Shown one piece after another: positions 35,459-51,730 of a DNA stretch of 64,000 nucleotides. Under the pieces are notes generated by a model, which saw only the letters and a list, made by a program, of their open reading frames with translations, did no database searches and was not told the DNA's origin. Source of the DNA: an uncultured delta proteobacterium (GTDB lineage: Bacteria > Myxococcota_A > Polyangia > Polyangiales > Polyangiaceae); contig CAWJCS010000005.1 in assembly GCA_963841435.1 (NCBI GenBank), forward strand, positions 544,001 through 608,000, given 5' to 3'. The first letter of the stretch is position 1, and every line of letters begins with the position of its first letter. The position numbers were made by a program, and so were the translations under genes.

Positions 35459-35473
35459 CCCGACCCCCGGTGC

Positions 35474-35665: not shown

Positions 35666-35750
35666 GCGCCGGACCGTACATGAGCGATGCCGCGGCGCCA
35701 ATCCGATCCGCAGCCTTTCTTTAGGTCGGATCTGCCCCGGCACGATGGGC

Positions 35751-36602: not shown

Positions 36603-37441
36603 GTCGCGCGTAGCCTTCGCCGCGACAGGAAGTGAGCGCCAACGTTCAAAAGCAGTACCATGCCGAGCAGCACGAGCGCCGCGGCCCAGGCTTGCTGGTG
36701 CCACTCGGGATAAGGCGACACGGCGTACGTATAGATGCCGACGGGCAGCGAGGCGGTCGGCTCCGTCCAGCCCCAGGACCAGAAGCGGTTGTTGAACGCG
36801 GTAAACAGCAGGGGCGCAGTTTCGCCCATGGCCCGCGCGATGGCCAGCATCACGCCCGTGACGATACCGGGCGCCGCCGTCGGCAAGACCACTCGCAGCG
36901 TCGCGCGCCATTTGGCCACTCCGAGCCCGAGGGCCGCTTCGCGCAGCGACCCCGGCACGAGGCGCACCAGCTCCTCGGTTGACCGGGCGATGCCCGGCAG
37001 CATCAGCACCGCGAGGGATAGCGCCCCCGCGAGCGCCGAAAAGCCGCCCATGCGCGTCACGAGCAGCTGGTAAACGAAGAGCCCGACGACAATCGACGGC
37101 ACCCCAGCCATCACGTCGGCCCCGAAGCGCACGAACTTGGCGAAGCGGGTTTCGCCGAACTCCGCGAGGTGCACCCCCGCGAGGATACCCGCCGGAACGC
37201 CGACGAGCGCGGCCAGACCGACGATACGAAGCGTGCCGAGGATGGCTTGACCCATGCCGCCGCCCGACTCGCCCACGGGACGCGGCAGCTCCGTGAAGAA
37301 CGCGAGACTGAGACCTCCGAGCCCGCGCACGAGCAAGAAGCCGAGCACGCTGAACAGTGGCACGAGCGCCAGCAGCGTCGCGAAAAGGCACGCCCCGCGC
37401 GCCAAGCGATCGAACAACCTCCGCTTGAGCGCCCGGTCCAT
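36599..37441 (-). CDS. pstA: Phosphate ABC permease
   Basis: [29 protein letters not shown] and [11 protein letters not shown]. Confidence 0.95.
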
Positions 37442-38409
37442 CAGCGTTGCCTCAAGAGGCCGTTGTTGCCGACGACACGCGAGACGAGCAGGCGCGCGAA
37501 CGCGTTGAGCAGCACCGTCACGATCAAAAGCACGAGACCGAGCTCGGCTAGCGCGGCGAGGTGAAGCTCGCTCGTCGCCTCGGCGAACTCGTTGGCGATA
37601 CCGCTCGCCATGGTGTAGGAGGGCGCGAAGAGCGAAGCGCTGATCTCGGCACGGTTGCCGATCACCATGGCGACGGCCATCGTCTCACCGAGCGCGCGAC
37701 CGAGCCCGAGCAACGTCGCCCCGAGGAGTCCCGAGCGCGCGAACGGCAGCACCGAAAGAGCGAGCATCTCGCTCTGCGTGGCCCCGAGCGCCAGGGCTCC
37801 CTCGCGCAGCGACGACGGCACGGCGCGCAGGACCTCGCGCGATACGGAGGCGATTGTCGGCAAGATCATGATGGCGAGCACGATGCCGCCGGTGAGCATC
37901 CCGAAGCCCTGGTAGGGACCGCTGAAAAACGGAAGAAACCCGAACGTCCCGGCCAACCACGGCTCGATGAAGCGCCGCAGCCACGGCGCCAGCGCCAGCG
38001 CGCCCCACAAGCCGTAGACGACGCTCGGCACGGCGGCGAGCAGATCGATCAGGAAGCCGAGCGGCGCGCGCTGCCAATCGGGTGCGAGCTCCGAAAGGTA
38101 GATCGCGGCGCCGAGCGCGATGGGCACGGCCATGAGCAGTGCGAGCGCGGAGGAGACCAGCGTGCCGTACACGAAAGGCAGCGCGCCGAACACCGAGTGC
38201 ACGGGATCCCACACACGGCCCACGACGAAGCCCAGGCCGAACTCCCGCAAGGAGGGCCACGATGCACGCGCAAGCTCCGCGGCCATGGCCGAGAGCCCGA
38301 GCACGACCACCAACGCGAACGCCGCCGTGACGGCGTAAAACACCCGATCCGCGTTGTTCTTACCCGCGGGCACCGAGAGCGGGTAAGAAGGAGCCGCCGG
38401 AGGGCTCAC
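37441..38409 (-). CDS. pstC: Phosphate ABC permease
   Basis: WDP...[33 protein letters not shown] and IANEFAEA. Confidence 0.95.
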
Positions 38410-39698
38410 GCCACGGCCCGCGTGCTCGCGGGCTCCGCCTTCTTGAGGCTCACGCTGAAGCTCGTGCCCTCACCGGGCGCGCTCACGACGCCGACGGTGC
38501 CCCCCATTGCTTCCGACAGGTGCTTCACGATGGAGAGTCCGAGCCCCGTGCCACCAAGCTCACGTGAGCGACCCGCGTCGACGCGGTAGAAACGCTCGAA
38601 CAGCCGCGGCAGGTGCCGCTCCTCGATACCAGGGCCGTCGTCCGACACCACGATCTGGATATCCGGCCCGGTGTCGACGGCGCCGAGCGAAACTCGGCAC
38701 CCGTCCGGGCAATACTTCACGGCGTTGTCGACCAGATTCGTGAGAACGTGCTCGAGCGCCCGGCGGTCGGCAAGGACGCGCGCGAGGCTGACGGGCGCGT
38801 CGTTCACGAGCTCGACGTGCTTCTTGTCGGCTCGCTCGCGAAACAGGCTCAGGACCTGCGCGAATATCGCGCGCGGCTCGAGGGGCTCGGGCACGAGCTT
38901 GAGCTTTTGCGACTCGATGCGCGAAAGGTCCAAGAGGTCCTCGACCAGGCCGTGGAGCCGCTCGGCGTTCCTCGCCATGATGCCAATGAACTGGTTCGAC
39001 ACGGTCTCGTCCTCGATGCCGGCCTGCAGCGTTTCGGCGGCCGAGCGAATCGCCGTCACGGGCGTGCGAAGCTCGTGCGAGACGTTCGCCACGAAATCGC
39101 GCCGCAGCGACTCGAGCTTTCGGACCTCGGTCACGTCAACGAACACCGCAAACACCTGCCCCTCTCGCCCGGGCAGCCGCGCCGCACGCACCAGGAGGCG
39201 CCGAGGCTTGAGCCCTTCGAGCTCGATCTCGCCGACGATCGCCTCGCCTTCGCGGGCGTGCTCGATGAGCTCCTTGAGCTCGGCGTGGCGGATGGCTTCG
39301 AGCTGCGTCTTGCCGACGGCATCGGCTCCGAGCAAAAGCATTTCGCGCAGGGCGCTGTTGATTAGCGTGATGTGGCCCTGCTCGTCGAGCAGCAAAACGC
39401 CTTCCTCCATGCCCGCGAGAATGCCGCGCAGGCGATCGCGCTCGTCGGTGAGCTCGGTGAGCGCCGTGGCGAGTGCCTGACCGGCGCGCGCCTCGGCCGC
39501 CGCCCTGTGGTCCTGGTCCCCGTGCGACACGCGGCGCAGCGCGAGCAGCGCGGTGCCACCCGCGGCAATCACGCCGAAAAGCGCGAGGGCGGGCAGGTGC
39601 TGACGCTGCTCCGGAACGAAGACGTAGGCGAATGCGAGGAGTGCTGCGACGACGCCAAGCGCCCTGAGAAAGAGCCAGGGACCGAGGCCCGGCCTCAC
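38406..39698 (-). CDS. phoR: Phosphate-regulon sensor kinase (2 TM, PAS, HisKA, HATPase)
   Basis: RRDFVANVSHELRTP, NLVDNAVKY, DDGPGI and FERFYRVDAGRSRELGGTGLGLSIVKH; directly upstream of pstC. Confidence 0.9.
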   Translation of the reverse strand: MRPGLGPWLFLRALGVVAALLAFAYVFVPEQRQHLPALALFGVIAAGGTALLALRRVSHGDQDHRAAAEARAGQALATALTELTDERDRLRGILAGMEEGVLLLDEQGHITLINSALREMLLLGADAVGKTQLEAIRHAELKELIEHAREGEAIVGEIELEGLKPRRLLVRAARLPGREGQVFAVFVDVTEVRKLESLRRDFVANVSHELRTPVTAIRSAAETLQAGIEDETVSNQFIGIMARNAERLHGLVEDLLDLSRIESQKLKLVPEPLEPRAIFAQVLSLFRERADKKHVELVNDAPVSLARVLADRRALEHVLTNLVDNAVKYCPDGCRVSLGAVDTGPDIQIVVSDDGPGIEERHLPRLFERFYRVDAGRSRELGGTGLGLSIVKHLSEAMGGTVGVVSAPGEGTSFSVSLKKAEPASTRAVA

Positions 39699-40396
39699 GG
39701 CACCGCCTCTTCGGGGGTCGCGACGAATCGGTAGCCGACACCACGAACCGTCTCCACGTACTCGCGTGCCCCCTCGAGCTTTTCACGCAGACGCTTGACG
39801 TGCGTGTCCACCGTGCGCGTCGTGATGTCCGCCTGGATGCCCCACACGTCGTCGAGCAGCGCCGAACGCGTCTGCACGCGGTTGCGACGATCGTAGAGCG
39901 TCACTAGCAGCTTGAACTCGAGAGCCGTCAGCTCCACCTCGGTGCCGTCCACCCAGATGCGGTGTGCGCCGCGGTCAATCTTGAGCCTACCGAACTCGAT
40001 CGTGAGATCGCCCCCGCGCGAATCGGGGCGGCCCCGGCGGAGAATCGCCTGAATGCGCAGCATCAGCTCGCGCACGCTGAACGGCTTCACGACGTAGTCG
40101 TCGGCGCCGAGCTCGAAGCCCACGACCCGGTCGATCTCCTCGCCGCGCGCCGTCAGCATGATCACGGGCAGGCCGCGCGTCGCGGCGCCGTTCTTCAGCT
40201 GCTTGCAAACCTCGGTGCCCGAGATGTCGGGCAGCATGAGATCGAGGAGCACCAGATCGGGACTCAGCTCGCGCGCCAGCTTCAGGCCGTCGGCGCCGAG
40301 CTGGGTGACGGTCACCTCGTGGCCTGCCTGGCGCAGGTTGTAATCCAGCACCTGCTGCAGGTCCTGCTCATCTTCGACGACTAGAATGCGGCTCAT
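39695..40396 (-). CDS. phoB: OmpR/PhoB-family response regulator (copy 2)
   Basis: ILVVEDE, LLDLMLP, LTARGEEIDRV, GADDYVVKPFS, TRTVDTHVKRLREK and TVRGVGYRF. Confidence 0.88.
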   Translation of the reverse strand: MSRILVVEDEQDLQQVLDYNLRQAGHEVTVTQLGADGLKLARELSPDLVLLDLMLPDISGTEVCKQLKNGAATRGLPVIMLTARGEEIDRVVGFELGADDYVVKPFSVRELMLRIQAILRRGRPDSRGGDLTIEFGRLKIDRGAHRIWVDGTEVELTALEFKLLVTLYDRRNRVQTRSALLDDVWGIQADITTRTVDTHVKRLREKLEGAREYVETVRGVGYRFVATPEEAVP

Positions 40397-40417
40397 ACAC
40401 CTCGGTAGCCCGATCAA

Positions 40418-40433
40418 GTGACGGGATTGTGAC
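40418..40433 (-). promoter_or_regulatory. Pho-box-like direct repeat upstream of phoB copy 2
   Basis: The minus strand reads GTCACaatcccGTCAC, with the two half-sites 11 bp apart. Confidence 0.7.
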
Positions 40434-40451
40434 ACCCCCCGCTCCTCACCG

Positions 40452-41159
40452 CTACGTCCCGTCCCCGACCGCGGACAATGGGGTCTCGGCGAACCGATAG
40501 CCCACCCCACGCACGGTCTCGATGTAATCCCGGGCAGCCCCCATCTTTTCCCGCAGACGCTTGACGTGGGCGTCGACCGTGCGGGTTGCGATCTTCGTGT
40601 CCATCCCCCAGACGTGGTCGAGGAGCGCGCCCCGCGACTGAACACGGTTTCGCCGATCATAGAGAGTGACGAGCAGCTTGAACTCGAGCGCCGTGAGCTC
40701 GACCTCCGCCCCTTGCACCCAAACCCGGTGGGCGTCGCGATCCATCCTGAGGGTTCCGAAATCGATCACGCTCGACTCGGGCGGCCTCACCTCGTTACGG
40801 CGCAAGGTCGCGCGGATGCGGAGCACGAGCTCGCGGACGCTGAAAGGTTTCGTAACGTAGTCGTCGGCCCCCAGCTCGAACCCGACGACGCGGTCTATTT
40901 CCTCCCCCCGTGCCGTGAGCATGATGATGGGGGTGGCGCGCATCGACACATCGTCCTTGATGGCGCGGCACACCTCGGTCCCCGAAATGTCGGGAAGCAT
41001 CAGATCCAAAAGCACGAGATCGGGCCTCTCCTGCCGCGCCAACCTGAGGCCGTCCTGGCCACGCCCGGCGGAAACCACCTCGTGACCGGCCGTCCTCAAA
41101 TTGTGGTCGAGGATCTGCCGAATGTCCGATTCGTCTTCGATCACGAGAATGCGGGCCAT
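40452..41159 (-). CDS. phoB: OmpR/PhoB-family response regulator (copy 1)
   Basis: ILVIEDE, LLDLMLP, GADDYVTKPFS and TRTVDAHVKRLREK; GGAGG RBS. Confidence 0.88.
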   Translation of the reverse strand: MARILVIEDESDIRQILDHNLRTAGHEVVSAGRGQDGLRLARQERPDLVLLDLMLPDISGTEVCRAIKDDVSMRATPIIMLTARGEEIDRVVGFELGADDYVTKPFSVRELVLRIRATLRRNEVRPPESSVIDFGTLRMDRDAHRVWVQGAEVELTALEFKLLVTLYDRRNRVQSRGALLDHVWGMDTKIATRTVDAHVKRLREKMGAARDYIETVRGVGYRFAETPLSAVGDGT

Positions 41160-41184
41160 CCGCCCGCCTCGATATCGTTCGGCT

Positions 41185-41211
41185 GTGACCGCCCGGTGAC
41201 GACTTAGTGCC
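41185..41211 (-). promoter_or_regulatory. Pho-box-like repeat upstream of phoB copy 1
   Basis: The plus strand has GTGAC at 41185 and 41196 and GTGCC at 41207, i.e. GGCAC/GTCAC/GTCAC at an 11-bp period on the minus strand. Confidence 0.7.
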
Positions 41212-41263
41212 AGTCAACGAACTCTCTTCACACGGAAAAGCCGCTCTGTTGCCGTGGCGTTGC

Positions 41264-41334
41264 GTCATCGATCCATCACGGAGCCGCCATGTGACAGTCA
41301 TGGTGTTTTTGCCGGCGAGTCACCGAACCGTCAC
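41264..41334 (+). promoter_or_regulatory. Extended Pho-box-like array upstream of tonB
   Basis: GTCAT 41264, ATCAC 41275, GCCAT 41286, GTCAT 41297, (TTTGC 41308), GTCAC 41319 and GTCAC 41330, all in one 11-bp register. Confidence 0.75.
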
Positions 41335-41366
41335 GGATCACCCCCATGCTCCCGTCCGGCTCGCCC

Positions 41367-42085
41367 ATGGACTTCGATACCTGGACCGTCCACCGCGTTG
41401 ACACGCTCCGCCTCCGACGACTGCTCGTCGGCTCCGTGCTGGGATCGTTCATGGTGGTCGCGGGGCTCGCCTTCGTGATCCTTACGAGCAAGGGCGCGGC
41501 CGCGGAAGAAGAAGAGGACGAGGGTCCGATCGAGGTCGCGCTCGCCGAGGCGCCCGAGCCGGAGCCGCCGCCGCCTCCTCCGCCCCCCGCCGCCGACAAG
41601 CCGAAGCCCGCACCGAAGCCGCGCATGGCCTCTCCCATGGCCGTGCCCGACGACAAGCCGGCCGAGAAGATCCGACGCCCGCCCAGATGCTCCCCGAGGT
41701 CGAGGAGGATGAGCACGAAGCGGCGCCCGCCGTCGCGAGCAGCGCACCGCCTCCGCCGCCTCCTCCACCCAGGCCGAAGCCCAAGCCGCAGATCAAGAAG
41801 CCCGTGCGGCTGACCGAGGACATGCCGCGTCCGGTGCAGACGCTGATGAAGACGCCGGAGTACCCGCCATCCGCCAAGGCGGCCGGCATCGAGGGCGTCG
41901 TGATCGTCAAGTACGTCGTGGGCGAGGACGGCTCCGTGCGCGACGCCAAGGTGCTCAAAGGCCCGGACGAGCTCAGGGAAGCCTGCCTCGTCGCCGTCCG
42001 GAGCTGGCATTTCCAGCCCATGATCGTCGATGGCGCACCGATCGCCTTCGTGAAGATCGCGCGTTTCCCGTTCCGCATCCGCTGA
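41367..42085 (+). CDS. tonB: Energy transducer TonB, split by a 1-nt deletion near 41669
   Basis: N-terminal TM and Pro/Glu/Lys-rich linker (frame of 41346..41813). TonB_C domain YPPSAKAAGIEGVV..W.FQP lies in frame 41687..42085. Adding one G to gagaagatccg gives EKDPTPAQMLPE and joins them. Confidence 0.85.
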
Positions 42086-42112
42086 GACAAGAGAGCAACA
42101 GGAGAGCCTAGA

Positions 42113-42814
42113 ATGTCGTTCAATCTCGTTCACATTTTTTCGACGATGTCCCCTCTCAGCAAGGGCATCTTCGTCATCCTGCTCTTGATGGCGGTGCTGT
42201 GCATCGGCGTCACCGTCGAGCGCTGGATCTCGTTCCGCAAGTCGGCCAAAGAATCTCGGCTCTTCGCGCAGGGCGCCTCGCCGCTCATCGACGAGTGGAA
42301 GGTCGACGAGGTCGAGGCGCTCGCCAGGAAGTACCAGGGCTCGGCGCTCGCGCGTCTGTTTCAGGCCACCATCGAGCGCTACATCCGGGGCTTCGAAGGT
42401 CTCGAGGGGGCGCTCACGCCGGTCGAGCTCGCGCGCAACGAGTCCGAGCGCAAGAAGGAGCAGCTTGCCGCCGAGCTTCGCCGCGGCATGAGCATCGTCG
42501 CGACGGTCGGTTCGATCGCGCCGTTCGTCGGTCTGCTCGGAACGGTGGTCGGCATCATCGCCGCGTTCCAGGGCATCGGGGCCTCGGGCTCGGGCGGCAT
42601 CGGTGCGGTGTCGGCCGGCATCGCCGAGGCGCTCGTCGAAACCGCGTTCGGCCTCATGGTCGCCATCCCCGCCGTCATCATGTTCAACTACCTGACCGGT
42701 CGTGTGGCCGGCATCGAGCTCGCGCTCGGCCGTTCGATCGGCGAGCTGCTCGACGAGATGGAGACCCACCAAGGTCGGTCGGCGAAGAAGGAAGGCAAGG
42801 CCGCCGCCGCGTGA
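42113..42814 (+). CDS. exbB: MotA/TolQ/ExbB proton channel protein
   Basis: ATVGSIAPFVGLLGTVVGII, GIAEALVETAFGL and AIPAV; GGAG RBS. Confidence 0.9.
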   Translation: MSFNLVHIFSTMSPLSKGIFVILLLMAVLCIGVTVERWISFRKSAKESRLFAQGASPLIDEWKVDEVEALARKYQGSALARLFQATIERYIRGFEGLEGALTPVELARNESERKKEQLAAELRRGMSIVATVGSIAPFVGLLGTVVGIIAAFQGIGASGSGGIGAVSAGIAEALVETAFGLMVAIPAVIMFNYLTGRVAGIELALGRSIGELLDEMETHQGRSAKKEGKAAAA

Positions 42815-42850
42815 GGCGCCGGCACGCCCCTCTTCGAAACGAGAAGCAGC

Positions 42851-43270
42851 ATGGCAGGCGCTAGGGTCTCACCGTCCAAGGTCGTCTCGAACCCGGAGAT
42901 CAACATCACGCCCCTCGTGGACGTGTGCCTGGTGCTGCTCATCATCTTCATGGTGATTGCCCCCGCACTGAGCGAGGGCGCTATGCTGGAGCTGCCGAAG
43001 TCGGTCACCGCGGATCCGAAGCCCAAGGACGTAAACCCGATCGAGCTCGCGATCGGCACGGACGGGGTCATCGTGCTCGACAAGCAGCACGTTCAGCGCG
43101 CGGAGCTAAAGCCCAGGGTCCAGACGATGCACGACGCCGAACCCAAGCGCGCGTTGATGCTGAAGCTCGACCACAACGCCCCGTACAAGCAAGTGCGCGA
43201 GCTCTTCGGCATGCTGCAAGAGGTCGGATTTCAAGGCATTTTGCTCAAAGTAAGCGACAAGAAGGAGTAG
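42851..43270 (+). CDS. exbD: ExbD/TolR family protein (copy 1)
   Basis: EINITPLVDVCLVLLIIFMV, which retains the conserved TM Asp. Confidence 0.9.
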   Translation: MAGARVSPSKVVSNPEINITPLVDVCLVLLIIFMVIAPALSEGAMLELPKSVTADPKPKDVNPIELAIGTDGVIVLDKQHVQRAELKPRVQTMHDAEPKRALMLKLDHNAPYKQVRELFGMLQEVGFQGILLKVSDKKE

Positions 43271-43277
43271 TGGCGCC

Positions 43278-43706
43278 ATGGCGATGACCCCGGCCGATTC
43301 CGGCGGCCCGAAGAAGCGGCCGAATCCCGTGATCAACATCACGCCGCTCGTCAACGTGGTGCTCGTCGTGCTCATCATCTTCATGATTGTCACCACGATG
43401 ATGACCCGCACGCTCTCGCTGCACATTCCGAAGTCCGAGAAGAAGGAAGACCCGAGCGAGATCGACGTGAAGCCCGTGGTCCTCACGATCGACAAGAAGG
43501 GCGTCATCCGCGCGAACCAGACCGTGCTCACGAAGCAAGAGGTCAAGGAGCGCGTGATCCGCATGATGGCCGCCAAGGATCAGCGGACGCTCTTCTTCGA
43601 TGCCCACGACGAAGCGACCTATGCCCAGGCCGTCGAGGTCATCGACCTCGTGCGCGCGGGCGGCGTGAAGTCGATCGCGATGCTCACCGAGAACGTCGCC
43701 AAATAG
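43278..43706 (+). CDS. exbD: ExbD/TolR family protein (copy 2; TM Asp replaced by Asn)
   Basis: INITPLVNVVLVVLIIFMI; AAGGAG RBS. Confidence 0.88.
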   Translation: MAMTPADSGGPKKRPNPVINITPLVNVVLVVLIIFMIVTTMMTRTLSLHIPKSEKKEDPSEIDVKPVVLTIDKKGVIRANQTVLTKQEVKERVIRMMAAKDQRTLFFDAHDEATYAQAVEVIDLVRAGGVKSIAMLTENVAK

Positions 43707-43747
43707 GGCGACCGGCCGTTCGGGAGCGAGCGGCGGCGGGACGCTCA

Positions 43748-43796
43748 GGCATCAGGTCGCCACCGGCAATTTGCGTGTCCTTCACAGGGACGTCAC
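43748..43796 (+). promoter_or_regulatory. Pho-box-like array upstream of the TonB-dependent receptor
   Basis: GGCAT 43748, GCCAC 43759, (TTTGC 43770), TTCAC 43781 and GTCAC 43792 in an 11-bp register. Confidence 0.6.
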
Positions 43797-43826
43797 GAAA
43801 CCTTTGCACGGTGCGGGCGCCGCGCC

Positions 43827-46800
43827 ATGCATACCTTCCGACGCTTCCGCATTACTTTCGGCGTTCTCGCCGTCGTCGTTCCCCTTCGTCCCGCGTTCGC
43901 CCAGGCGCCCGCCGCACCGAAAGCACCCGCTCCCGCAGCGCCTTCGACGCCCTCACCGCCGAGCGCACCTGCAGCGCCGGCGCCGTCCCCTGCGCCCGCT
44001 CCGAGCGCACCCGCTGCGCCGGCAGCACCGTCCGACGACGACGACATGGACGAGGGCGACGAAGGCGACGAGGTCGCGCCCGAGGGCAGCGCCGCGCCGG
44101 ACGAAGCGACCGAAAGCGCAGGCACCGAGGCCGGAGCCGACGAAGGCGACGACCTCGGCGACGAGGATCTCGGCGAAGAGAACCCGGGCCGCCCGCCACC
44201 CAAGGGCAAGGGTGTCGTGTGGGGTAACGTCAAGGACACCGAGGGCGAGCTCATCGAAGCGCCGGTGCAGGTGCTGGGCACCAAGACGACGGTGGTCACC
44301 GATCTCGAAGGCCGCTACCGCCTCGAGCTTCCGCCCGGCACCTACAGCCTGCGCATCTCGTACGAGCTTCACAAGTCGGTGCGTTTCGACAAGGTCGTCG
44401 TCAAGGCCGGCAAGGTGCAGCGGCTCGACACCCAGCTACTCTCCGACGAAGAAGCCGTCGACGTCATCGAGGTCGTGGTGGACGCCGATCGCAGCACCGT
44501 CGAAGGGACGCTCCTCGCGCGCCAGAAGGCGACCGCCGTGGGTGACAGCGTGGGCCGCGCGGAGATTTCGAAGACGCCCGCGGCGAACGCCGCGCAGGCG
44601 GCCGAGCGCGTGCCGGGTGCCACGATCATCGGCAACCGCTTCGTCTACGTGCGCGGCCTCGGCGAGCGCTACACGAACTCGCTGTTGAACGGCGCACCGC
44701 TGCCGAGCCCCGAGCCCGACCGCGCCGCCATCCCGCTCGACGTGTTCCCGTCGCTCATCATCGACAGCCTGTCGATCGTGAAGACCTTCACGCCCGACGT
44801 GCCTGGCGACTTCGCGGGCGGCTCCGTGCGCATCCAGACGCGCGAGCTGCCGACCAAGCCCTTGCTGCAAGCTTCCGTCGGCCTCGGCTACGACGACAAG
44901 GCGACGTTCCGACGCCGCCTCGCCCAGCGCGGCAGCGGCACCGACTGGCTCGGCTTCGACGATGGCACGCGCGACCTGCCGGAGGGTCTCAAGGGTAAGG
45001 CCGGTCTCAGCGAAGCGCAGTTGGAGGCGAACGCGCAGGGGATCAACTCCTACATGTCGGCGCTCCGTCAGGCATCACCGCCCAACTATTCGCTGAGCGC
45101 TGTCGCCGGTAATGGCTGGGCGTTCCCGAACGACCAACGGGTCGGTGCGCTCGTCACCGCGAACTACGGTCGGAGCTTCACCAACATCAACGATGCCATC
45201 ATTCGCTCGTACATTCCGCAAAACGGCATCGACTACGGCGTGCAATACGGCGCCGACAAGGTGAGCTGGGGAAGCCTCGCGAGCGTCAGCTACTGGCCCT
45301 CGGCAAACCATCGGCTATCGCTGCTCGGGCTGCACACGCAACTCGCCGACTCGACGGCGCAGATCGTCCAAGGGTACAGCGAAGAACGATCTGGCATCAT
45401 TGCTGACGCGGGCTTGCGCTACGTCAGCCGTGCTCTCAATTTCGGCCAGCTTCGAGGAGAGCACGACTTCCCCGCGCTAGCGAGAGCACGCTTGGAGTGG
45501 AACGGCGCACTCTCGCGCGCGGATCGAAACGAGCCAGACACTCGCCACGCGGTCGTGCAAAAAGATGCGAGCGACCCGACATCCCTCTTCGCCAACGTCA
45601 CGACCCCGGAAAGCGGATCCCACCTGCACGCGGAACAATACGAGGTGAGCCGAGGCGCGGGCCTCGACTGGACGCAGCCGTTCTCCAGAGATCCGGAAGC
45701 CTCGAAGGCCAAGTTCGGCGGTATCATCAGCGTCAAGTCTCGCAGGTTCGAGCAGAAACGATTTCACCTCGAGCCGAACGGCCTGCCTTTTCTTTGCGGG
45801 GTCAACTACGCCCGGAACTGCCCGGATACGATCTACACGCCCGAAAACATCGACAACCAGCGACTCCTGCTGTCCGAAGACACCCGCCCGGAAGACGCCT
45901 ACAGGGCATCCCTCAACGTCTATGGTGCCTACGCGATGGTGGATGTGCCATTGGCGAAGGACTTACGCGCGATCGGCGGCGCCAGGCTCGAAGTGACGGA
46001 TCAACGGCTGGAGCCCTATACGCAGTTCGACACGGGGCCGAATCCGCCGGGAGTCACCCTCAAGCAAAACAACTGGTTGCCCGCGATCTCCCTCGTCTTT
46101 TCACCCACCAAGAAGACCAAGGTCCGTGTGGCGGCAGCGCGCACGCTCGCCCGGCCCCAGCTGCGAGAGCTCGCACCGTACGCGTTCGCGCAGTTCGTCG
46201 GCGCCATGCCTTTTGCCGGCAACCCCAACCTGCAGATCACCCGCATCAACAACTTCGATACCCGATTCGAGTTTTATCCGAGCCTGCGTGAGGTGCTCGC
46301 GTTCAGCTTCTTTTACAAGACCTTCAAAGACCCGATCGAGTACGTCGTGTTTCCTTCGGGTCGCGGCATCCTGAAGCCTGAAAATTCGCCGGGCGCGACG
46401 CTCGCCGGGGTCGAGTTCGAGGCGAGGAAATCACTCGGAGACTTGGCTCCCGTGCTGAAAGACTTCAGCGCGATCGCGAATTTGACCCTCGCGAGGTCCG
46501 CGATCCGAATCCAACGCCAGATCGAGGGTGATCTGAACAACCAGGTGACGAGCCTCGACCGACCGATGGTCAACCAGGCCCCCTTCGTCGTGAACTTCGC
46601 CGTCGATTACGCGAACGAGGCGAGCGGTTTCGGCGTGAGAGCACTCTACAACGTCGTCGGCAGGCGAATCGTCGAGGTCGGAAGCAACGGTTTCCCCGAC
46701 GCATACCAGCAACCGCGGCATGTGCTCGATCTCACCCTGAGCGAAGACTTCGCCAAGCACTGGCAGGTAAAGCTCAATGCCACCAACCTTTTCGGATCGG

Positions 46801-46937
46801 ACACGCGCGTGACGTACGGTCCGGAGAACAACGATGAGCACATCGCAAGGCTGCACAACGTCGCCCAGACCGGCGGCGAAACCGGCTTCTTTGCGGACAG
46901 CCGCGTGTTTACTCTGTCAGGAGCCTTCACGTACTGA
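43827..46937 (+). CDS. TonB-dependent receptor with a Pro/Ala-rich then acidic N-terminal extension and a carboxypeptidase-regulatory-like domain
   Basis: Signal peptide ending AFA|Q. Plug RVPGATI...FVYVRGLGERY..LLNG.PLPSPEPDR. Barrel motifs TLARPQLRELAP, GNPNL and FYK.FKDPIE, ending in GAFTY. Confidence 0.92.
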   Translation: MHTFRRFRITFGVLAVVVPLRPAFAQAPAAPKAPAPAAPSTPSPPSAPAAPAPSPAPAPSAPAAPAAPSDDDDMDEGDEGDEVAPEGSAAPDEATESAGTEAGADEGDDLGDEDLGEENPGRPPPKGKGVVWGNVKDTEGELIEAPVQVLGTKTTVVTDLEGRYRLELPPGTYSLRISYELHKSVRFDKVVVKAGKVQRLDTQLLSDEEAVDVIEVVVDADRSTVEGTLLARQKATAVGDSVGRAEISKTPAANAAQAAERVPGATIIGNRFVYVRGLGERYTNSLLNGAPLPSPEPDRAAIPLDVFPSLIIDSLSIVKTFTPDVPGDFAGGSVRIQTRELPTKPLLQASVGLGYDDKATFRRRLAQRGSGTDWLGFDDGTRDLPEGLKGKAGLSEAQLEANAQGINSYMSALRQASPPNYSLSAVAGNGWAFPNDQRVGALVTANYGRSFTNINDAIIRSYIPQNGIDYGVQYGADKVSWGSLASVSYWPSANHRLSLLGLHTQLADSTAQIVQGYSEERSGIIADAGLRYVSRALNFGQLRGEHDFPALARARLEWNGALSRADRNEPDTRHAVVQKDASDPTSLFANVTTPESGSHLHAEQYEVSRGAGLDWTQPFSRDPEASKAKFGGIISVKSRRFEQKRFHLEPNGLPFLCGVNYARNCPDTIYTPENIDNQRLLLSEDTRPEDAYRASLNVYGAYAMVDVPLAKDLRAIGGARLEVTDQRLEPYTQFDTGPNPPGVTLKQNNWLPAISLVFSPTKKTKVRVAAARTLARPQLRELAPYAFAQFVGAMPFAGNPNLQITRINNFDTRFEFYPSLREVLAFSFFYKTFKDPIEYVVFPSGRGILKPENSPGATLAGVEFEARKSLGDLAPVLKDFSAIANLTLARSAIRIQRQIEGDLNNQVTSLDRPMVNQAPFVVNFAVDYANEASGFGVRALYNVVGRRIVEVGSNGFPDAYQQPRHVLDLTLSEDFAKHWQVKLNATNLFGSDTRVTYGPENNDEHIARLHNVAQTGGETGFFADSRVFTLSGAFTY

Positions 46938-46998
46938 TGCAACGCCGGCCACGGGTTGAGGCGTTCCTCACCAATTGGGCGTGAAATCGTCGAACGCC

Positions 46999-47047
46999 GA
47001 CATCGATTAGTCATGGAAAAGTTACCGATGATGCACTCGGAGTCCAT
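46999..47047 (+). promoter_or_regulatory. Pho-box-like array upstream of the beta-helix lipoprotein
   Basis: GACAT 46999, GTCAT 47010, GTTAC 47021, TGCAC 47032 and TCCAT 47043 in an 11-bp register; strong AAGGAGG RBS at 47094-47100. Confidence 0.6.
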
Positions 47048-47108
47048 GAGTGAGCCGCTATGGTCCCCCGGTTCCAAGGATCCCTTGATCCCCAAGGAGG
47101 AAATATAG

Positions 47109-48791
47109 ATGACCAAGCTTCGTTCTAGTGCGCTGATGGCGTGCCTCTTAGGATTCGCAGCAGCAACGGCATGCGGAGGCGACGACAGCCCGCCCGCAAA
47201 CACCGCTGGCAAGGGCGGCACCGGCGGTTCGACCGGCGGCAAGGGCGGCTCGGGCGGTTCGACCGGCGGCAAAGGCGGCACGAGCGGCGCGGGCGGTTCG
47301 ACGGGCGGCACCTCCAGCGGCGGCAAGGGCGGCTCGACGGGCGGCACCTCCAGCGGCGGCAAGGGCGGCTCGGGCACCGGTGGTTCGACCGGCGGAACGG
47401 GCACCGGCGGCTCTGGTAACGAAGGTGGCATGCCGGAAGGCGGCACTGGCAACGAGGGCGGCGGGGGCAACGTCAGCGGCTGCACCATCTACGACTCCGC
47501 CCGCGAGGTCATGGACATCCCGACCGACGTCGATAGCAACGTGGACTTCGGCAGCGCGGACGAGATGACACTGACCAGCGACAAGACCTGGCGCATCAGC
47601 GGCCGCATTTACGTGCCCGATGGCAAGACGCTCAACATCGACGCCTGCACGCTGATCGTGGCGACGGGCAAACCGAACGCGGGTTCCCTCTTCGTCATGC
47701 GCGGCGGGAAGCTCAACGCCGTGGGCACGCCCGATGAGCCGATCGTGTTTTCGAGTGAGGACTACCATTACCACTCGAACGCCCGCTGGGGCGGCGTCGT
47801 CCTGCTCGGCAAGGCGCCGATCGCTCCGACGCCGACGGACATCACCAATGCGACCACGCCTCAGCGCGTCTTCGAAGGTATCGAGGATACGCGTGCTACC
47901 TACGGCGGTGATGACCCCGAGGACGACAGCGGCACTCTGCAATACGCCCGGATCGAGTACGGCGGTGACATCATCGTGGCCGACAAGGAGGTCAATGGCC
48001 TGACGCTCGGTGGCGTGGGGCGCGGTACCACGGTCAACCACGTGATGATCAAGCGCCAAGGTGACGACTGCATCGAGTTCTTCGGCGGCACCGCGGACGT
48101 CGACCATCTCATCTGCGAGAACACCGGCGACGACATGTTCGACACGGATGAAGGGTACACGGGCCACCTCCAGTTCCTGTTCGGTCGCCTCACGACGACC
48201 GGCACGTCCAGTGACCCCAACGGCTTCGAATGGGACGGCAACCAGCAGTGGGGGACGTTCACCCCGGCAGGCGTGGATGCACACGGAGGTACGCCGCACG
48301 CCTCGAACGCCACGCTCTGTGGCCTGGGCTCGTCGGCCGGCGTTTCGGCCCACGGTGCGGTCCTCCGACGGAACTTCGATTCCGCCGGTGGGACCTTGGT
48401 CCGCAACACCATCATCACCGGCTTCGACGACGGCTACGACGTTCGCGACGATGAGGGGGCAACCACGGCCGCGTACTTCGGTTTGGATCACAGCCTGTTC
48501 TTCGACAACTTCAAGAGCAACGTCGCGCCCGTGGAAGTCGACCCCGGGAACGATTTCGGCTTCGATGAGCTGGCCTTCTTCGCCGATGCAGCCAACAGCA
48601 ACGATACGACGAAGCCGGCTGGGTTCGACTGCTACACCAATCCGCCCCATCCCTTCCCGGACACTACCGTTGACGGCGCAGCGGCGGGAGACGGGTTCAA
48701 GACACCGACGGCCGACTACGTGGGCGCGTTCAAGGACGCCAGCGACAACTGGATGACCGGCGCCTGGGTGGACTGGTCGAGCGGCAGCTGA
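47109..48791 (+). CDS. Acidic beta-helix lipoprotein of a family typically encoded beside TonB-dependent receptors
   Basis: Lipobox ATAC and a Gly linker, followed by WGGVVLLGKAP, YGG....DDSGTLQYARIEYGG, NGLTLGGVG.GT, DDCIEFFGGT, DDMFDTDEGY.G..QF and a W..GW tail. Confidence 0.8.
   Translation: MTKLRSSALMACLLGFAAATACGGDDSPPANTAGKGGTGGSTGGKGGSGGSTGGKGGTSGAGGSTGGTSSGGKGGSTGGTSSGGKGGSGTGGSTGGTGTGGSGNEGGMPEGGTGNEGGGGNVSGCTIYDSAREVMDIPTDVDSNVDFGSADEMTLTSDKTWRISGRIYVPDGKTLNIDACTLIVATGKPNAGSLFVMRGGKLNAVGTPDEPIVFSSEDYHYHSNARWGGVVLLGKAPIAPTPTDITNATTPQRVFEGIEDTRATYGGDDPEDDSGTLQYARIEYGGDIIVADKEVNGLTLGGVGRGTTVNHVMIKRQGDDCIEFFGGTADVDHLICENTGDDMFDTDEGYTGHLQFLFGRLTTTGTSSDPNGFEWDGNQQWGTFTPAGVDAHGGTPHASNATLCGLGSSAGVSAHGAVLRRNFDSAGGTLVRNTIITGFDDGYDVRDDEGATTAAYFGLDHSLFFDNFKSNVAPVEVDPGNDFGFDELAFFADAANSNDTTKPAGFDCYTNPPHPFPDTTVDGAAAGDGFKTPTADYVGAFKDASDNWMTGAWVDWSSGS
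47298..47372 (+). repeat. Perfect 36-bp tandem duplication in the Gly-rich linker
   Basis: tcgacgggcggcacctccagcggcggcaagggcggc occurs twice (STGGTSSGGKGG). Confidence 0.85.
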
Positions 48792-48833
48792 TTCCAGTCA
48801 CTGCCAAGCGCCCCTGATTCCAGCAGGGGCTGG

Positions 48834-48872
48834 AACGGGGCGGTCTTCACGGACCGCCCCGTTTCGCATTTT
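48834..48872 (+). terminator. Rho-independent terminator closing the tonB-TBDR-lipoprotein unit
   Basis: 12-bp stem aacggggcggtc / gaccgccccgtt with a 6-nt loop, followed by tcgcatttt. A second small hairpin lies at 48810-48830. Confidence 0.7.
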
Positions 48873-48999
48873 GTCGGCGAGCCGCTAAGCGCGGGGGCGG
48901 TCGGACCGCCCGCCCGCGAAATCCCGAGCCGGGTACGGCCGACTCCCGTCGCCGCTTTACACCGCCGAGCCGATCCTCGAAGGTCGGGGTCCTTCGCCA

Positions 49000-49884
49000 A
49001 TGCTATCTCGCCTCTGGAGGTTCGGTTCCGTGGCTCGTGCTCTCTCGTTTTTCCTGGTTTCGCTCGTGCTGCTTGCCTGCGGTCACTCCGAGGAGGAGTG
49101 GCAGGCCGAGCTCGCGAAGTACAACAACCTCGTCGCTCAGCATCAGCGGGAGATGGCGACGCGCCAGGCGACCGAGGAATCACTCGGCCAGGCCCAGGCG
49201 CGGGTGGCGGCGCTCAAGGGCGAGCTCGAGAAGATGGGCGTGAGCATGGAGTCGCTCAACGAGCAGGTGCAGCAGACTGGCACGCAGAACGAGGCGCTCG
49301 CCAAGAGCGTTCAGGACATGCAGCGCGCGCTCGACGAGTACAAGACGCGCGCGGCGCAGCTCGAGCGCATCAAGCAACGCTTCGAGCTCCTGCAGCAGAA
49401 GCTCAAGAAGCTGACGGAGCTCGGCCTCAAGGTGGAGATCCGCAGGAACCGCATGGTGATCCGCCTGCCGGGCGACGTGCTGTTCGCTTCGGGGCAGGCC
49501 AAGCTCCGCCCCGAAGGCAAGCAGGTGCTCGACCAGGTGGCGGAGGTGATCCGCAACGACAAGCAGCTGGAGGCTCGCTACTTCCAGGTGGCGGGCCATA
49601 CCGACAACAAGCCGCTCGTCGGGGGGCGGTTCCTCGACAACTGGGGGCTCTCCGTGATGCGGGCCCGAGAGGTGCTCGTGTACCTGGTGACGCCTTTCGA
49701 CCCGAAGGACCCGAAGAAGAGCGGCGGGGGTCTGTCGCCGACCCGCCTACATGCCGCCGGCTACGGGGAGACCGACCCCGTGGTGAAGAACGACACCGAC
49801 GAGGGCAGGCAGCAAAATCGGCGTGTCGAGCTCGTGCTGATGCCGGATGTCGAGGAAATGCTTGATCTTAGGTCGCTGCTTTGA
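49000..49884 (+). CDS. OmpA/MotB-family peptidoglycan-binding lipoprotein with a coiled coil
   Basis: Lipobox LLAC, heptad region, VLFASG, VAGHTDN, NWGLS..RA and NRRVE. Confidence 0.88.
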   Translation: MLSRLWRFGSVARALSFFLVSLVLLACGHSEEEWQAELAKYNNLVAQHQREMATRQATEESLGQAQARVAALKGELEKMGVSMESLNEQVQQTGTQNEALAKSVQDMQRALDEYKTRAAQLERIKQRFELLQQKLKKLTELGLKVEIRRNRMVIRLPGDVLFASGQAKLRPEGKQVLDQVAEVIRNDKQLEARYFQVAGHTDNKPLVGGRFLDNWGLSVMRAREVLVYLVTPFDPKDPKKSGGGLSPTRLHAAGYGETDPVVKNDTDEGRQQNRRVELVLMPDVEEMLDLRSLL

Positions 49885-49977
49885 AAGGTGAAACTCCGGC
49901 CGGTCAGCTGGCGTAGCAGTACCGTCATGCTGTCCGTCGCTGGCACACCCGCTTGGGGCGGTCTAGGGATCGGCGGT

Positions 49978-50535
49978 GTGGACACGCGAGCGGACGTCGC
50001 GACGCTCGAAGAGCTCATGGAGCGGTACGTCGAGGGGAGCCCCAAGGCGTTCGACGAGCTCTATCGCCGCGTTTCCCCGAACTTGATGGGATACCTCCTG
50101 CGCCTGACGCGCGACAGGGGGCGCGCCGAGGATCTGTTGCAGGTGACCTTCTCGAAGGTGCACCGCGCGCGCGCGAGCTACCTGCGCGGTGCCCCGATCT
50201 TGCCGTGGCTGTTCGCCATCGCGCGGCGATCATTTCTGGACGAGCGCCGCTCGGCACGTTCGCGCAGCGAGGATCTTTCCCCCGACGGCACGCTGCCCGA
50301 GCCGCGGCCGGAGCCTGAAGGTGTTTCGAACAACGTCTCGGACGCCATCGAGCGCGCGGTCGACGCGTTGCCCGAAGCGTACCGTGAGGCGATCCAGCTC
50401 ACCAAAATTTCTGGCCTCAGCATCGCCGAGGCCGCATCCGTGCTCGACTCCAGCGAAACGGCGGTAAAGCTCCGGGTGCACCGGGGCTACAACCTGCTGC
50501 GCAAAGAGCTCGAGCGTTTCTCGAGGAGCCGATGA
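49978..50535 (+). CDS. ECF sigma-70 factor
   Basis: AFDELY, AEDLLQVTF and WLFAIAR; region 4 LPEAYREA..GLS..EAA...AVKLRVHRG. Start uncertain. Confidence 0.9.
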   Translation: MDTRADVATLEELMERYVEGSPKAFDELYRRVSPNLMGYLLRLTRDRGRAEDLLQVTFSKVHRARASYLRGAPILPWLFAIARRSFLDERRSARSRSEDLSPDGTLPEPRPEPEGVSNNVSDAIERAVDALPEAYREAIQLTKISGLSIAEAASVLDSSETAVKLRVHRGYNLLRKELERFSRSR

Positions 50536-51230
50536 GCGAAAAAGAGCCGCTCGACGATCTTCCGTGGCCGAAGCCGGTGGAGCCGGGCGTGGCAGTGAGC
50601 GACACGATCCGGCACCAGTGCACGCACCGCCTGAGCGGTCAGCGTTGCGCGCGGGCGCACCAGCGCGCGGCGCTGTCGCTGCTGTTGCCCACGCTCGTGA
50701 TTGGTCTTTTGAGCTGGTTCGGCGCCACGCACTCCGAGTCCGAGGCCACGCTGCGCACGGCGCTGTTCGGGGTCGCGGGCTGGGCCGTCGTGCTCGTGGC
50801 CGTGCTCGCCGCGGGCCTCGCCACGCCGCCCGGGCGCCGTCCGGCGCGAGCCGTGCGGCTCGTGATCGCCGTGATGGTGCCGGTTCTGTTCGTGCTCTAC
50901 ATCACGGCGACGGCACAGGCGCACGAGACGTTCGGCGCGTTCTCACACGGGGCGACGGCGGAGCACGCCGTCCGCTGTGGCGCGTTCTGCCTCGCGCTCG
51001 GCGCGATCGTTTCGGGAGGCGTGCTCTTGCTCTGGCGTGGTACGGATCCGCTGTCGCCGGGGCTTTCGGGTGCGTTCGCCGGGCTCGTCGGGGGGCTGAG
51101 CAGTGCGCTCGCGGTGGGGGTCGCCTGTCCGAGCCACGAGGCGTGGCACGTCGGGCTTTCACATGGGCTCGTGGTGGTGGCGATGGTGGGGTTGGGTGCT
51201 GCGGTGGGGCGACGACTGCTCGCACCGTGA
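50532..51230 (+). CDS. NrsF/DUF1109-like membrane anti-sigma factor
   Basis: ATGA overlap with the sigma gene, about 6 TM helices, Cys in VRCGAFC and ACP, and a downstream H...H. Confidence 0.65.
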   Translation: MSEKEPLDDLPWPKPVEPGVAVSDTIRHQCTHRLSGQRCARAHQRAALSLLLPTLVIGLLSWFGATHSESEATLRTALFGVAGWAVVLVAVLAAGLATPPGRRPARAVRLVIAVMVPVLFVLYITATAQAHETFGAFSHGATAEHAVRCGAFCLALGAIVSGGVLLLWRGTDPLSPGLSGAFAGLVGGLSSALAVGVACPSHEAWHVGLSHGLVVVAMVGLGAAVGRRLLAP

Positions 51231-51730
51231 AGAAAAGCCACCGTCTGCTCGACATCTTGATCTGGACCGCGCTCGCGGCTTCCGTCGTCGTGCTCGTGCG
51301 CCGGCGTTCGTCCGGCCCCGACGAAGGCACCGAGGCGGCGCCCATCAGGCTGGCGCTGCTGGGAGAGGACGGCCATTTCGACCTCGCGAGCCAACGGGGC
51401 AAGCCCGTCGTGCTCGAGGTATTCGCGAGCTGGTGCGGCACCTGCCGCCGTGCGACACCCGTGCTCGCTCAGGCGTACCGCGACCACGGCAGCGAAAAGG
51501 CGACGTTCCTCGGTGTGAGCGTCAACGACTCACCCGCGGCGGCCCTGCGCGCGCAAAAGGAGTGGGACATCCCCTATCCGGTGGCGCTCGACGACGGACA
51601 GGTGGCGCGCGCGTACCACGTGTCGCTCTTGCCGACGGTCGTGCTCATCGATCGCGACGGCAAGGTGCGGCGCGCCTCGGCGGGCGTGCCCACGCGCGAC
51701 GAGCTCGATCGGTTCATCGCCGGGGAGTGA
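51227..51730 (+). CDS. TlpA/ResA-like thiol-disulfide oxidoreductase
   Basis: GTGA overlap; N-terminal anchor, GKPVVLEVFASWCGTC and LPTVVLIDRDG. Confidence 0.88.
   Translation: MKKSHRLLDILIWTALAASVVVLVRRRSSGPDEGTEAAPIRLALLGEDGHFDLASQRGKPVVLEVFASWCGTCRRATPVLAQAYRDHGSEKATFLGVSVNDSPAAALRAQKEWDIPYPVALDDGQVARAYHVSLLPTVVLIDRDGKVRRASAGVPTRDELDRFIAGE

Follow-up and report, generated by a model that had tools for sequence, protein, structure and literature searches.

We have analysed a stretch of 64,000 nucleotides from an uncultured delta proteobacterium of the Polyangiaceae (GenBank assembly GCA_963841435.1, contig CAWJCS010000005.1, positions 544,001 to 608,000 of the forward strand; hereafter the window), which contains a plus-strand gene unit made up of tonB, exbB, two copies of exbD, a TonB-dependent transporter (TBDT) and a lipoprotein. 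We propose that this unit is probably a Polyangia counterpart of the ElpS-type module for uptake under phosphate starvation, in which the lipoprotein would capture a phosphorus compound for import by the TBDT. The unit diverges from phoB1-phoB2-phoR-pstCAB on the minus strand, as had been noted in an earlier description made from the sequence alone (the original prediction). Protein families were assigned with Pfam and NCBIfam scans, using the curated cut-offs of NCBIfam as a benchmark, and tonB, exbB, both exbD genes, the lipoprotein and the TBDT lie where the earlier description put them, the last being the 1036-amino acid receptor of the original prediction.

What is added here is modest, in that a known module is found to reach another phylum and no new kind of system is described. 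Specifically, we 1) extend the module to the Polyangia; 2) put forward a Pho box for this lineage; 3) describe the linkage of the pair to a dedicated TonB set and to duplicated PhoB genes; and, 4) list the residues that are invariant in the lipoprotein. The Polyangia loci offer Pho-type boxes ahead of the parts of the system (a weaker copy at the lipoprotein) and physical linkage of the system to phoB-phoR-pst and to a TonB complex of its own, while the short list of acidic residues that are invariant across phyla provides targets for mutagenesis. Cultured strains of Sorangium and Polyangium carry the unit, among them Sorangium cellulosum So ce56 (NC_010162.1, at about 7.10-7.12 Mb, locus L041) and Polyangium fumosum DSM 14668 (L074), and the predictions made here are therefore testable.

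Counterparts of the transporter and lipoprotein in other phyla

A tblastn search of a plasmid collection with the lipoprotein returned 23 plasmid or chromid records from Gammaproteobacteria, Alphaproteobacteria and Bacteroidota. The gene matched in Sphingomonas parapaucimobilis encodes a hypothetical protein and is followed by that of a TBDT and then by gspN, gspD and gspE; this protein aligns with the profile of the Polyangia lipoproteins (alignment A1, 43 sequences) in hhalign with a probability of 100 and E = 3.6e-38, and its partner TBDT aligns with the window TBDT at 2e-65 over 840 residues. The TBDT of Bacteroides finegoldii matches the window TBDT at 3e-53 over 895 residues, has the same domain order and is followed by a lipoprotein gene with the motifs DDxxExFGG and DDDMFD. 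Both partners are therefore homologous across phyla and travel together. In Pseudoalteromonas a multi-domain member of the lipoprotein family (PF28492, see below) lies between an exbB-exbB-exbD-tonB set and a TBDT. As a side point, the lipoprotein homologue of B. finegoldii (L081, 5821-7074) reads as two open reading frames (ORFs) of 201 and 212 amino acids, and the gene table of the collection lists no gene there.

Pairs of this type have been described in three lineages, and we summarise them from the accessible parts of the papers concerned. In Caulobacter crescentus, ElpS (CC0170 / CCNA_00169) is reported to be a surface-exposed lipoprotein of ~50 kDa that lacks a recognised domain, is produced during phosphate starvation only and is later released (PMC2996285). 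Its gene neighbours the TBDT gene CC0171, with type II secretion genes immediately downstream, an arrangement that is likewise reported for a Sphingomonas (PMC2996285), and induction of the elpS promoter requires PhoB (PMC5172544). The TBDT Fjoh_0545 of Flavobacterium johnsoniae has pf07715, pf13715 and pf14905, and Fjoh_0546 is a lipoprotein termed 'FII' with a pectin-lyase fold (IPR011050), for which the authors report homology to ElpS; both genes belong to a phoBR operon and are up by 8-10 log2-fold once phosphate is depleted, a condition under which ElpS-type lipoproteins are reported to be among the most abundant proteins released by Flavobacterium (PMC8115612). In Bacteroides thetaiotaomicron, BT4055/BT4056 have been proposed to be a non-SusC TBDT and its lid, where BT4056 is of the pectin-lyase superfamily and reported to be homologous to ElpS and Fjoh_0546, and where the two genes stay close to each other in 621 genera (10.1101/2023.03.17.533168).

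As far as these published accounts go, the window resembles each of the three. It shares with ElpS/CC0171 a lipoprotein beside a TBDT, and the window pair is homologous to the Sphingomonas pair, which stands in the elpS-TBDT-type II secretion layout; it differs in that the TBDT gene comes first, that no type II secretion genes are nearby, and that tonB-exbB-exbD-exbD, a neighbouring phoB-phoR-pst cluster and a long Gly-rich tether are added. With Fjoh_0545/0546 ('PUSIV') it shares the same three TBDT domains (PF07715, PF13715 and PF14905), a pectin-lyase-type lipoprotein and co-location with phoB/phoR, whereas the phylum is another one, and a TonB complex of its own and two PhoB genes in tandem are found in the window in addition. 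An orphan paralogue of F. johnsoniae, FIII (PMC8115612), has its parallel in 13 related Polyangia loci without a TBDT. With BT4055/4056 it shares the order of TBDT and then lipoprotein, and the B. finegoldii pair is homologous to both window proteins; however, the accessible text reports no phosphate link for BT4055/56 itself, and its proposed lid is based on an AlphaFold-Multimer model.

The window pair is probably of the ElpS / Fjoh_0546 (FII) / BT4056 kind, to go by the descriptions in these papers and by the fact that each partner is homologous in sequence to a counterpart identified from its gene order. The original prediction mentioned phosphate-starvation TBDTs of Caulobacter and Flavobacterium, where the published pairs are ElpS/CC0171 and Fjoh_0545/0546, and it overstated its case in treating the lipoprotein as an unplaced novelty, as the ElpS, Fjoh_0546 and BT4056 pairs are already published, to go by the portions of those papers that are accessible. 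When shorter proteins of the Bacteroidota were searched with residues 46-427 of P0146, 6,807 of 8,000 candidates matched, and none of the best 120 of these 6,807 was identifiable as Fjoh_0546 or BT4056. In a literature search whose coverage of subscription journals and supplements was incomplete, we found neither a biochemical characterisation of Fjoh_0546, Fjoh_3856, Fjoh_4889, BT4056 or CCNA_00169, nor a paper on a myxobacterial phosphate-regulated TBDT.

Pho-box-like repeats and the conserved neighbourhood

The motif GTCAC-N6-GTCAC, a direct repeat with 11-bp spacing, resembles the Pho box of Escherichia coli in core and spacing. Allowing up to one mismatch, it occurs nine times in the window against 5.1 expected, and since 9 of 100 shuffles reach nine, this count alone is unremarkable. 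It is the placement that is informative: the short intergenic gaps ahead of phoB2, phoB1, tonB and the TBDT contain five of the nine matches, including three of the four that are exact, and every one of the five is oriented toward the gene downstream. These boxes end 21-32 nt ahead of the four starts, and the leaders are therefore likely to be very short or absent. The original prediction had Pho-like arrays before tonB, the TBDT and the lipoprotein: the first is present as an exact copy and the second with one mismatch, while the lipoprotein has only a weaker, two-mismatch copy.

One genome per species was scanned, which gave 77 related loci whose neighbouring genes were identified by tblastn with the window proteins; the source is in every case a member of the Polyangia or a metagenome-assembled genome with the label Myxococcales, Proteobacteria or delta proteobacterium. 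These loci hold 223 motif matches in 1.32 Mb. With up to one mismatch, a same-strand match precedes the PhoB-like genes in 28 of 29 loci (46 observed versus 0.6 expected) and tonB in 26 of 41 (31 versus 1.4). The gap between the TBDT and the lipoprotein has such a match in 12 of 50 loci (14 versus 1.8, with three on the opposite strand) and, if two mismatches are allowed, in all 50 (82 versus 11.5, with 12 on the opposite strand). Between exbD and the TBDT, at up to one mismatch, there are five matches where 1.2 are expected, and a TBDT-specific box is seen chiefly in loci whose TBDT and tonB genes are separated (e.g., L003, L004, L005, L026 and L059).

One related locus, L039, is of particular use. 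Here the regulator that adjoins tonB is followed by pstS (378 bits versus a cut-off of 205), pstC and pstA, and an exact copy of the box lies 57-72 nt ahead of the pstS start. The promoters of pstS are textbook PhoB targets. Because the repeat recurs at the same places in related loci and precedes pstS in L039, GTCAC-N6-GTCAC is a well-supported candidate for the Pho box of this lineage, and PhoB-mediated control of the unit by phosphate starvation is predicted. It may be added that pstS of L039 (1771-2865) lies between phoB and pstC, a slot that is held by phoB2-phoR in the window.

The gene order around the lipoprotein is conserved. Where at least 3.5 kb of sequence precedes the lipoprotein gene, a TBDT lies directly upstream on the same strand in 51 of 66 loci, and exbB is present in addition to the TBDT in 37 of the 54 with at least 7.5 kb upstream; 26 of these 37 complete loci also have a PhoB-like regulator scoring at least 230 bits. 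The 15 loci that lack a directly upstream TBDT comprise 13 with none, one with the TBDT downstream and one that is rearranged, and the 13 without a TBDT are paralogues, several genomes having a linked copy as well (e.g., L041 and L042 of So ce56). PhoR-like genes (at least 250 bits) are found in six loci, and Pst genes only in L039, although the pst genes of the window are 10-11 kb from the lipoprotein, a distance past the flank fetched for most loci. Co-occurrence with pho genes had been put forward beforehand as a check on the idea, and linkage to pho genes and Pho-box-like repeats is indeed conserved across the related Polyangia loci.

The PhoB-like genes are duplicated in tandem, with each window copy having its own Pho-box-like repeat, and at least seven related loci (L004, L007, L015, L030, L031, L032 and L035) have such a tandem pair. 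A tree of 43 PhoB-like sequences separates a tonB-proximal type, which includes window phoB1 and the L039 gene before pstS, from a tonB-distal type, to which belong window phoB2, next to phoR, as well as the single regulator of Sorangium and Polyangium. As the proximal type stands before pstS in L039 and the distal type beside phoR in the window, both types sit with pho genes somewhere. The support for this division is just 90/87, with several long branches in the tree, and we therefore assign no separate roles to the two paralogues.

A further exact copy of the motif, the only one outside the pho-tonB region of the window, is at 58648-58663 on the minus strand between an FtsX/MacB-like permease gene (56968-58569, minus strand) and a Ser/Thr kinase gene (58837-60537, plus strand), and may be a chance occurrence.

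Protein features, proposed mechanism and alternative functions

The lipoprotein has a lipobox, a hydrophobic stretch ending in Cys22, and this cysteine is kept in at least 90% of the 43 homologues in alignment A1. Beyond it is a tether of about 100 amino acids rich in Gly, Ser and Thr. AlphaFold, run with the A1 alignment, gives a disordered Gly-rich linker for residues 1-122 (predicted local distance difference test, pLDDT, <50) and a parallel beta-helix for residues 125-560, mostly at pLDDT >90, so that the beta-helix guessed at in the original prediction was correct. The strong ribosome-binding site claimed for this gene is also there, as a Shine-Dalgarno sequence AAGGAGG at 47094-47100, 8 nt ahead of the ATG.

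Local Pfam and NCBIfam scans gave no match for the lipoprotein, and the family was instead reached through its homologues, as all 120 of 120 among the matches listed carry the precomputed label PF28492.1. The atlas name for PF28492 is Beta_helix_4, 'pectate-lyase like beta helix', and our literature search found no paper on PF28492 or Beta_helix_4. The family is large, with 11,773 representative proteins matched by the 43-sequence Polyangia profile at E ≤ 0.001, 4,232 of them at E ≤ 1e-30. Many PF28492 proteins have two to five tandem copies of the domain and lengths of 800-2400 amino acids, a type IX secretion sorting domain ends 4 of the 11 that were scanned, and one protein of 4910 amino acids combines PF28492 with 14 Beta_helix/NosD repeats. 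Across an alignment of 22 members from Polyangia, Alphaproteobacteria, Gammaproteobacteria, Bacteroidota and related phyla, eleven residues are invariant, that is E256, E294, D319, D320, E323, D341, D342, D345, D347, Q355 and R420. They recur at intervals of roughly 22-28 positions, on successive strands of the AlphaFold model, and would thus line one face of the beta-helix.

The best Foldseek match of the lipoprotein has an E-value of 3.7e-3 and template modelling (TM) scores of 0.24/0.31, and the weak neighbours are all of the pectin-lyase fold (YbhC, AlgG, an alginate lyase of polysaccharide lyase family 6 (PL6), the P22 tailspike and NosD), while a profile search of PDB sequences gave two chance-level matches only. 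An assignment to the polysaccharide lyases or hydrolases of the pectin-lyase fold was not supported, there being no significant match to a characterised enzyme family in Pfam, NCBIfam, the PDB profile search or Foldseek.

The fold nevertheless raises the question of carbon acquisition, where the beta-helix would be a lyase or hydrolase for an acidic glycan, the TBDT would import the oligosaccharides, and the link to pho would be incidental or serve to obtain phosphate trapped in the glycan. This would suit a fold class that includes pectate and alginate lyases, epimerases and tailspikes, and it would suit the invariant Asp/Glu cluster with an Arg, which we take to resemble Ca2+-assisted lyase sites. 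We consider it improbable, however, as no fold match reaches E ≤ 0.001, no lyase or hydrolase is matched in Pfam or NCBIfam, and neither a carbohydrate-active enzyme (CAZyme) nor a sugar transporter or sugar regulator was found in the unit, whereas the Pho-box-like repeats are conserved and the homologues, in the accessible account, respond to phosphate and are repressed under nitrogen and iron limitation (PMC8115612).

Returning to the uptake of a phosphorus compound as the preferred function, the TBDT consists of a signal peptide, an acidic Pro/Ala-rich stretch, a CarboxypepD_reg domain (residues 131-218), a plug (235-322) and a barrel that matches TonB_dep_Rec_b-barrel and OMP_b-brl_3 in Pfam. 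It scores 225.9 bits against TIGR01782, under the cut-off of 310, and a PDB search gave no match. The arrangement recalls SusC/SusD, being likewise an outer-membrane TBDT plus a surface lipoprotein from an adjoining gene. It differs in that the lipoprotein is a beta-helix without the SusD fold and the TBDT is far under the SusC/RagA cut-off (TIGR04056, 32.7 bits versus 368). A SusC/SusD pair was rejected on these grounds, the lipoprotein having no SusD match in Pfam, and the original prediction had correctly called it non-SusD.

Two other functions of the TBDT have to be weighed. One is uptake of iron or another metal, in which a siderophore-type TBDT and its own TonB complex would be no more than neighbours of a pho locus; a TonB-ExbBD set dedicated to one TBDT is classically the mark of an iron system, and a second TBDT with an MxcH-like N-terminus lies beyond pstB. 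Yet the siderophore and haem TBDT models score far under their cut-offs (26.5 versus 223.5 and 30.9 versus 316.85 bits), a siderophore-binding protein, reductase or ABC (ATP-binding cassette) importer was not found in the unit, and the boxes are of the Pho type. Moreover, elpS is reported not to be induced by iron depletion (PMC2996285) and the Flavobacterium homologues are reported to be repressed by iron limitation (PMC8115612), as stated in the available text of both papers, and we hold a metal system to be very unlikely.

The other is protein export or surface display, where the TBDT would release or expose the lipoprotein instead of importing a nutrient. The Myxococcus TBDT Oar, which reportedly carries a CarboxypepD_reg domain, is said to be needed for secretion of PopC, and the window TBDT has a CarboxypepD_reg domain at its N-terminus. 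The route of ElpS to the surface, which is independent of type II secretion, was also left unexplained in the accessible report (PMC2996285). Against this, the same pairing occurs in Bacteroidota and Proteobacteria, for which an import role has been proposed in what can be seen of the two papers concerned (10.1101/2023.03.17.533168; PMC8115612), and we give export very little weight.

For the proposed uptake module the state of tonB is of importance. TonB_C, MotA_ExbB and ExbD domains are encoded together in the window, and the complete energising set of the original prediction holds for exbB and both exbD genes. It does not hold for an intact tonB, which is read in two frames: the membrane helix and the first Pro-rich stretch are in one, from a conserved M-D-F..W start at 41367, and the TonB_C domain is in another (ORF 41687-42085), with the switch between 41667 and 41696. 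When the TonB proteins of L035 and L007, one ORF each, are compared with this gene by tblastn, each gives two high-scoring segment pairs in different frames. This may be a genuine shift or a single-base assembly error, between which the sequence does not discriminate. If genuine, the cluster could be decaying here, and the unit would be non-functional or would use another TonB; the intact ORFs of L035 and L007 favour this view, whereas every other gene of the unit is intact with its conserved motifs, and a one-base assembly error would look identical. We regard decay as unlikely, while allowing it a real chance.

We hypothesise that the uptake module would work as follows: 1) at low phosphate, phosphorylated PhoB, here a tandem duplicate, would bind the GTCAC-N6-GTCAC boxes; 2) PhoB would activate its own genes, phoR-pstCAB, tonB-exbB-exbD-exbD, the TBDT and the lipoprotein; 3) the lipid-anchored lipoprotein would extend from the membrane on its tether of ~100 residues; 4) the row of invariant Asp and Glu residues with one Arg, on successive rungs, would form a metal-assisted site, probably for Ca2+; 5) at the cell surface, this site would capture an anionic phosphorus-bearing compound or polymer and possibly cut it; 6) the ligand would be handed to the cognate TBDT and imported by means of the co-encoded TonB-ExbB-ExbD motor; and, 7) periplasmic enzymes encoded elsewhere would free phosphate for Pst. 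By analogy with its homologues, the window unit is expected to be induced when phosphate is scarce and to depend on PhoB, and its lipoprotein to be exposed at the surface. The binding of the lipoprotein to the TBDT, a need for metal, the type of cargo and the path of phosphate to Pst are as we infer them. The earlier interpretation is right in outline; it stands as regards the pho linkage, the Pho-type boxes and a non-SusD beta-helix partner that travels with the TBDT, and falls as regards the novelty of the lipoprotein and an intact tonB, while the role of 'lid or hydrolase' that it gave to the lipoprotein may apply.

A bolder suggestion, which we offer tentatively and think doubtful, is that the PF28492 beta-helix is not a passive lid and is a metal-dependent enzyme for the capture or cleavage of one class of phosphorus-bearing polymer. 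Candidate polymers may include phosphodiester-linked wall polymers of prey cells, polyphosphate and metal-phytate. Were this the case, the TBDT-lipoprotein pair would be a widespread and unrecognised route of phosphorus acquisition, the profile matching 11,773 representative clusters, and in the Polyangia that route would be wired directly to a duplicated PhoB and have its own TonB motor.

Several observations weigh against a phosphate-starvation uptake module and should be considered together. Foldseek gave no match to the lipoprotein at E ≤ 0.001, and thus no structure close enough to name a chemistry, and the reading frame of the window tonB is not intact, which, if the shift is real, leaves the dedicated energiser broken. 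PhoB1, PhoB2 and the PhoR-like kinase of the window all score under the NCBIfam curated cut-offs, pstS was not found in the 64-kb window by Pfam and NCBIfam scans, and family scans found no phosphatase, nuclease or phytase gene in the cluster. With respect to regulation, a PhoB-like neighbour scoring 230 bits or more is missing from the sequence within reach in 11 of the 37 complete loci, the box before the window lipoprotein carries two mismatches, and the exbD-to-TBDT box is rare (4 of 40 loci). As to the published systems, purified ElpS is reported to be without phosphatase activity and cc0171 to be constitutive in the accessible part of that study (PMC2996285), and the complex model of the Bacteroides pair made with AlphaFold-Multimer has few high-confidence contacts, as the available text describes it (10.1101/2023.03.17.533168). 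Finally, the link to ElpS, Fjoh_0546 and BT4056 is made through synteny-defined counterparts and published descriptions.

With regard to the regulators, PhoB is the top NCBIfam match of both PhoB1 and PhoB2, and PnpS and PhoR are those of the kinase. PstC, PstA and PstB each exceed their NCBIfam curated cut-offs, and this context (pstCAB in the window, pstS in L039) supports the assignment of the neighbouring genes to PhoB and PhoR.

Features of the window and neighbouring genes

The features of the unit, of the divergent cluster and of the repeats are collected in Table 1. The intrinsic terminator proposed earlier was confirmed at 48831-48866, its stem being followed by CATTTTG and its fold having an energy of -47.8 kcal/mol (z = -4.7), with none of 200 shuffles as stable. 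The GC content of the window is about 0.63-0.76. An Rfam scan of 40300-49100 gave no match and a sigma-70 promoter scan gave 0 sites.

Table 1. Positions of the uptake unit, the divergent pho-pst genes and the Pho-box-like repeats in the window
Feature	Position	Strand	Evidence
tonB, interrupted	41367..42085	+	Pfam TonB_C 4.8e-17
exbB (MotA/TolQ/ExbB proton channel)	42113..42814	+	Pfam MotA_ExbB 1e-29; NCBIfam top matches tolQ and exbB, both under curated cut-offs
exbD, copy 1	42851..43270	+	Pfam ExbD 1.5e-23
exbD, copy 2	43278..43706	+	Pfam ExbD 2.1e-21
TBDT, 1036 amino acids	43827..46937	+	Pfam PF13620, PF13715, PF07715, PF00593, PF14905
Lipoprotein, 560 amino acids	47109..48791	+	Translation, 43-sequence alignment A1, PF28492.1, AlphaFold
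Intrinsic terminator at the end of the unit	48831..48875	+	16-bp stem, T-rich tail
phoB1 (PhoB-like response regulator adjoining tonB)	40452..41159	-	Response_reg and Trans_reg_C; PhoB TIGR02154 253.1 bits versus cut-off 296.2
phoB2 (second PhoB-like response regulator, adjoins phoR)	39695..40396	-	TIGR02154 254.4 bits versus 296.2
phoR-like histidine kinase	38406..39698	-	PAS, HisKA, HATPase_c; PnpS 339 bits versus 400; PhoR TIGR02966 282.5 versus 334.2
pstC	37441-38409	-	NCBIfam PstC 311.9 bits versus cut-off 196.45
pstA	36599-37441	-	NCBIfam PstA 288.9 bits versus cut-off 193.45
pstB	35751 to about 36494	-	NCBIfam PstB 359 bits versus cut-off 343.2
Pho-box-like repeat GTCACCGAACCGTCAC, 32 nt before tonB start	41319..41334	+	Exact
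Pho-box-like repeat TTCACAGGGACGTCAC, 30 nt before TBDT start	43781..43796	+	One mismatch
Degenerate Pho-box-like repeat GTCATGGAAAAGTTAC, 83 nt before lipoprotein start	47010..47025	+	Two mismatches
Three consecutive half-sites GGCAC-N6-GTCAC-N6-GTCAC before phoB1	41185..41211	-	Exact copy 41185-41200, one-mismatch copy 41196-41211
Pho-box-like repeat GTCACAATCCCGTCAC before phoB2, head of phoB2-phoR-pstCAB	40418..40433	-	Exact

Beyond pstB, at 31881-35750 on the minus strand, is a second TBDT-lipoprotein pair. Its TBDT (32876-35458, minus strand, 860 amino acids) has an N-terminal TonB_C-like domain as well as the MxcH-like N-terminus mentioned above, and its lipoprotein, P0122 (31881-32876, minus strand, 331 amino acids), has 190 homologues and no Pfam family. 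These homologues are all unnamed or labelled as metagenome bins of Myxococcota, Polyangiaceae or Pseudomonadota, and the model of P0122 (pLDDT 92.8) consists of tandem beta-sandwich domains with generic Ig-like matches only. A Pho-like box with up to two mismatches was not found upstream of this second TBDT, which is therefore not counted in the unit. The 290-nt gap after pstB contains a small ferredoxin-like ORF, read from the sequence only.

On the other side, past the terminator (49000-51730, plus strand), are genes for an OmpA/MotB-like coiled-coil protein, an extracytoplasmic function (ECF) sigma factor and a redoxin-domain protein. OmpA-like and ECF genes are found near the lipoprotein in eight related loci, and since their position and orientation vary, they are taken as a separate unit. 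Further away, a 630-amino acid beta-helix protein at 13581-15473 (minus strand), with Beta_helix and NosD matches, shows no relation to PF28492 as far as tested and stands beside an oligopeptide-type ABC system with an SBP_bac_5 binding protein. Finally, the plus-strand region 28503-31723 encodes a gene pair with DUF1587/1592/1595/1588/1585 domains and then a DUF1552 (HXXSHH) protein, which are adjoined by a major facilitator superfamily (MFS) transporter and a GH31 glycosidase.

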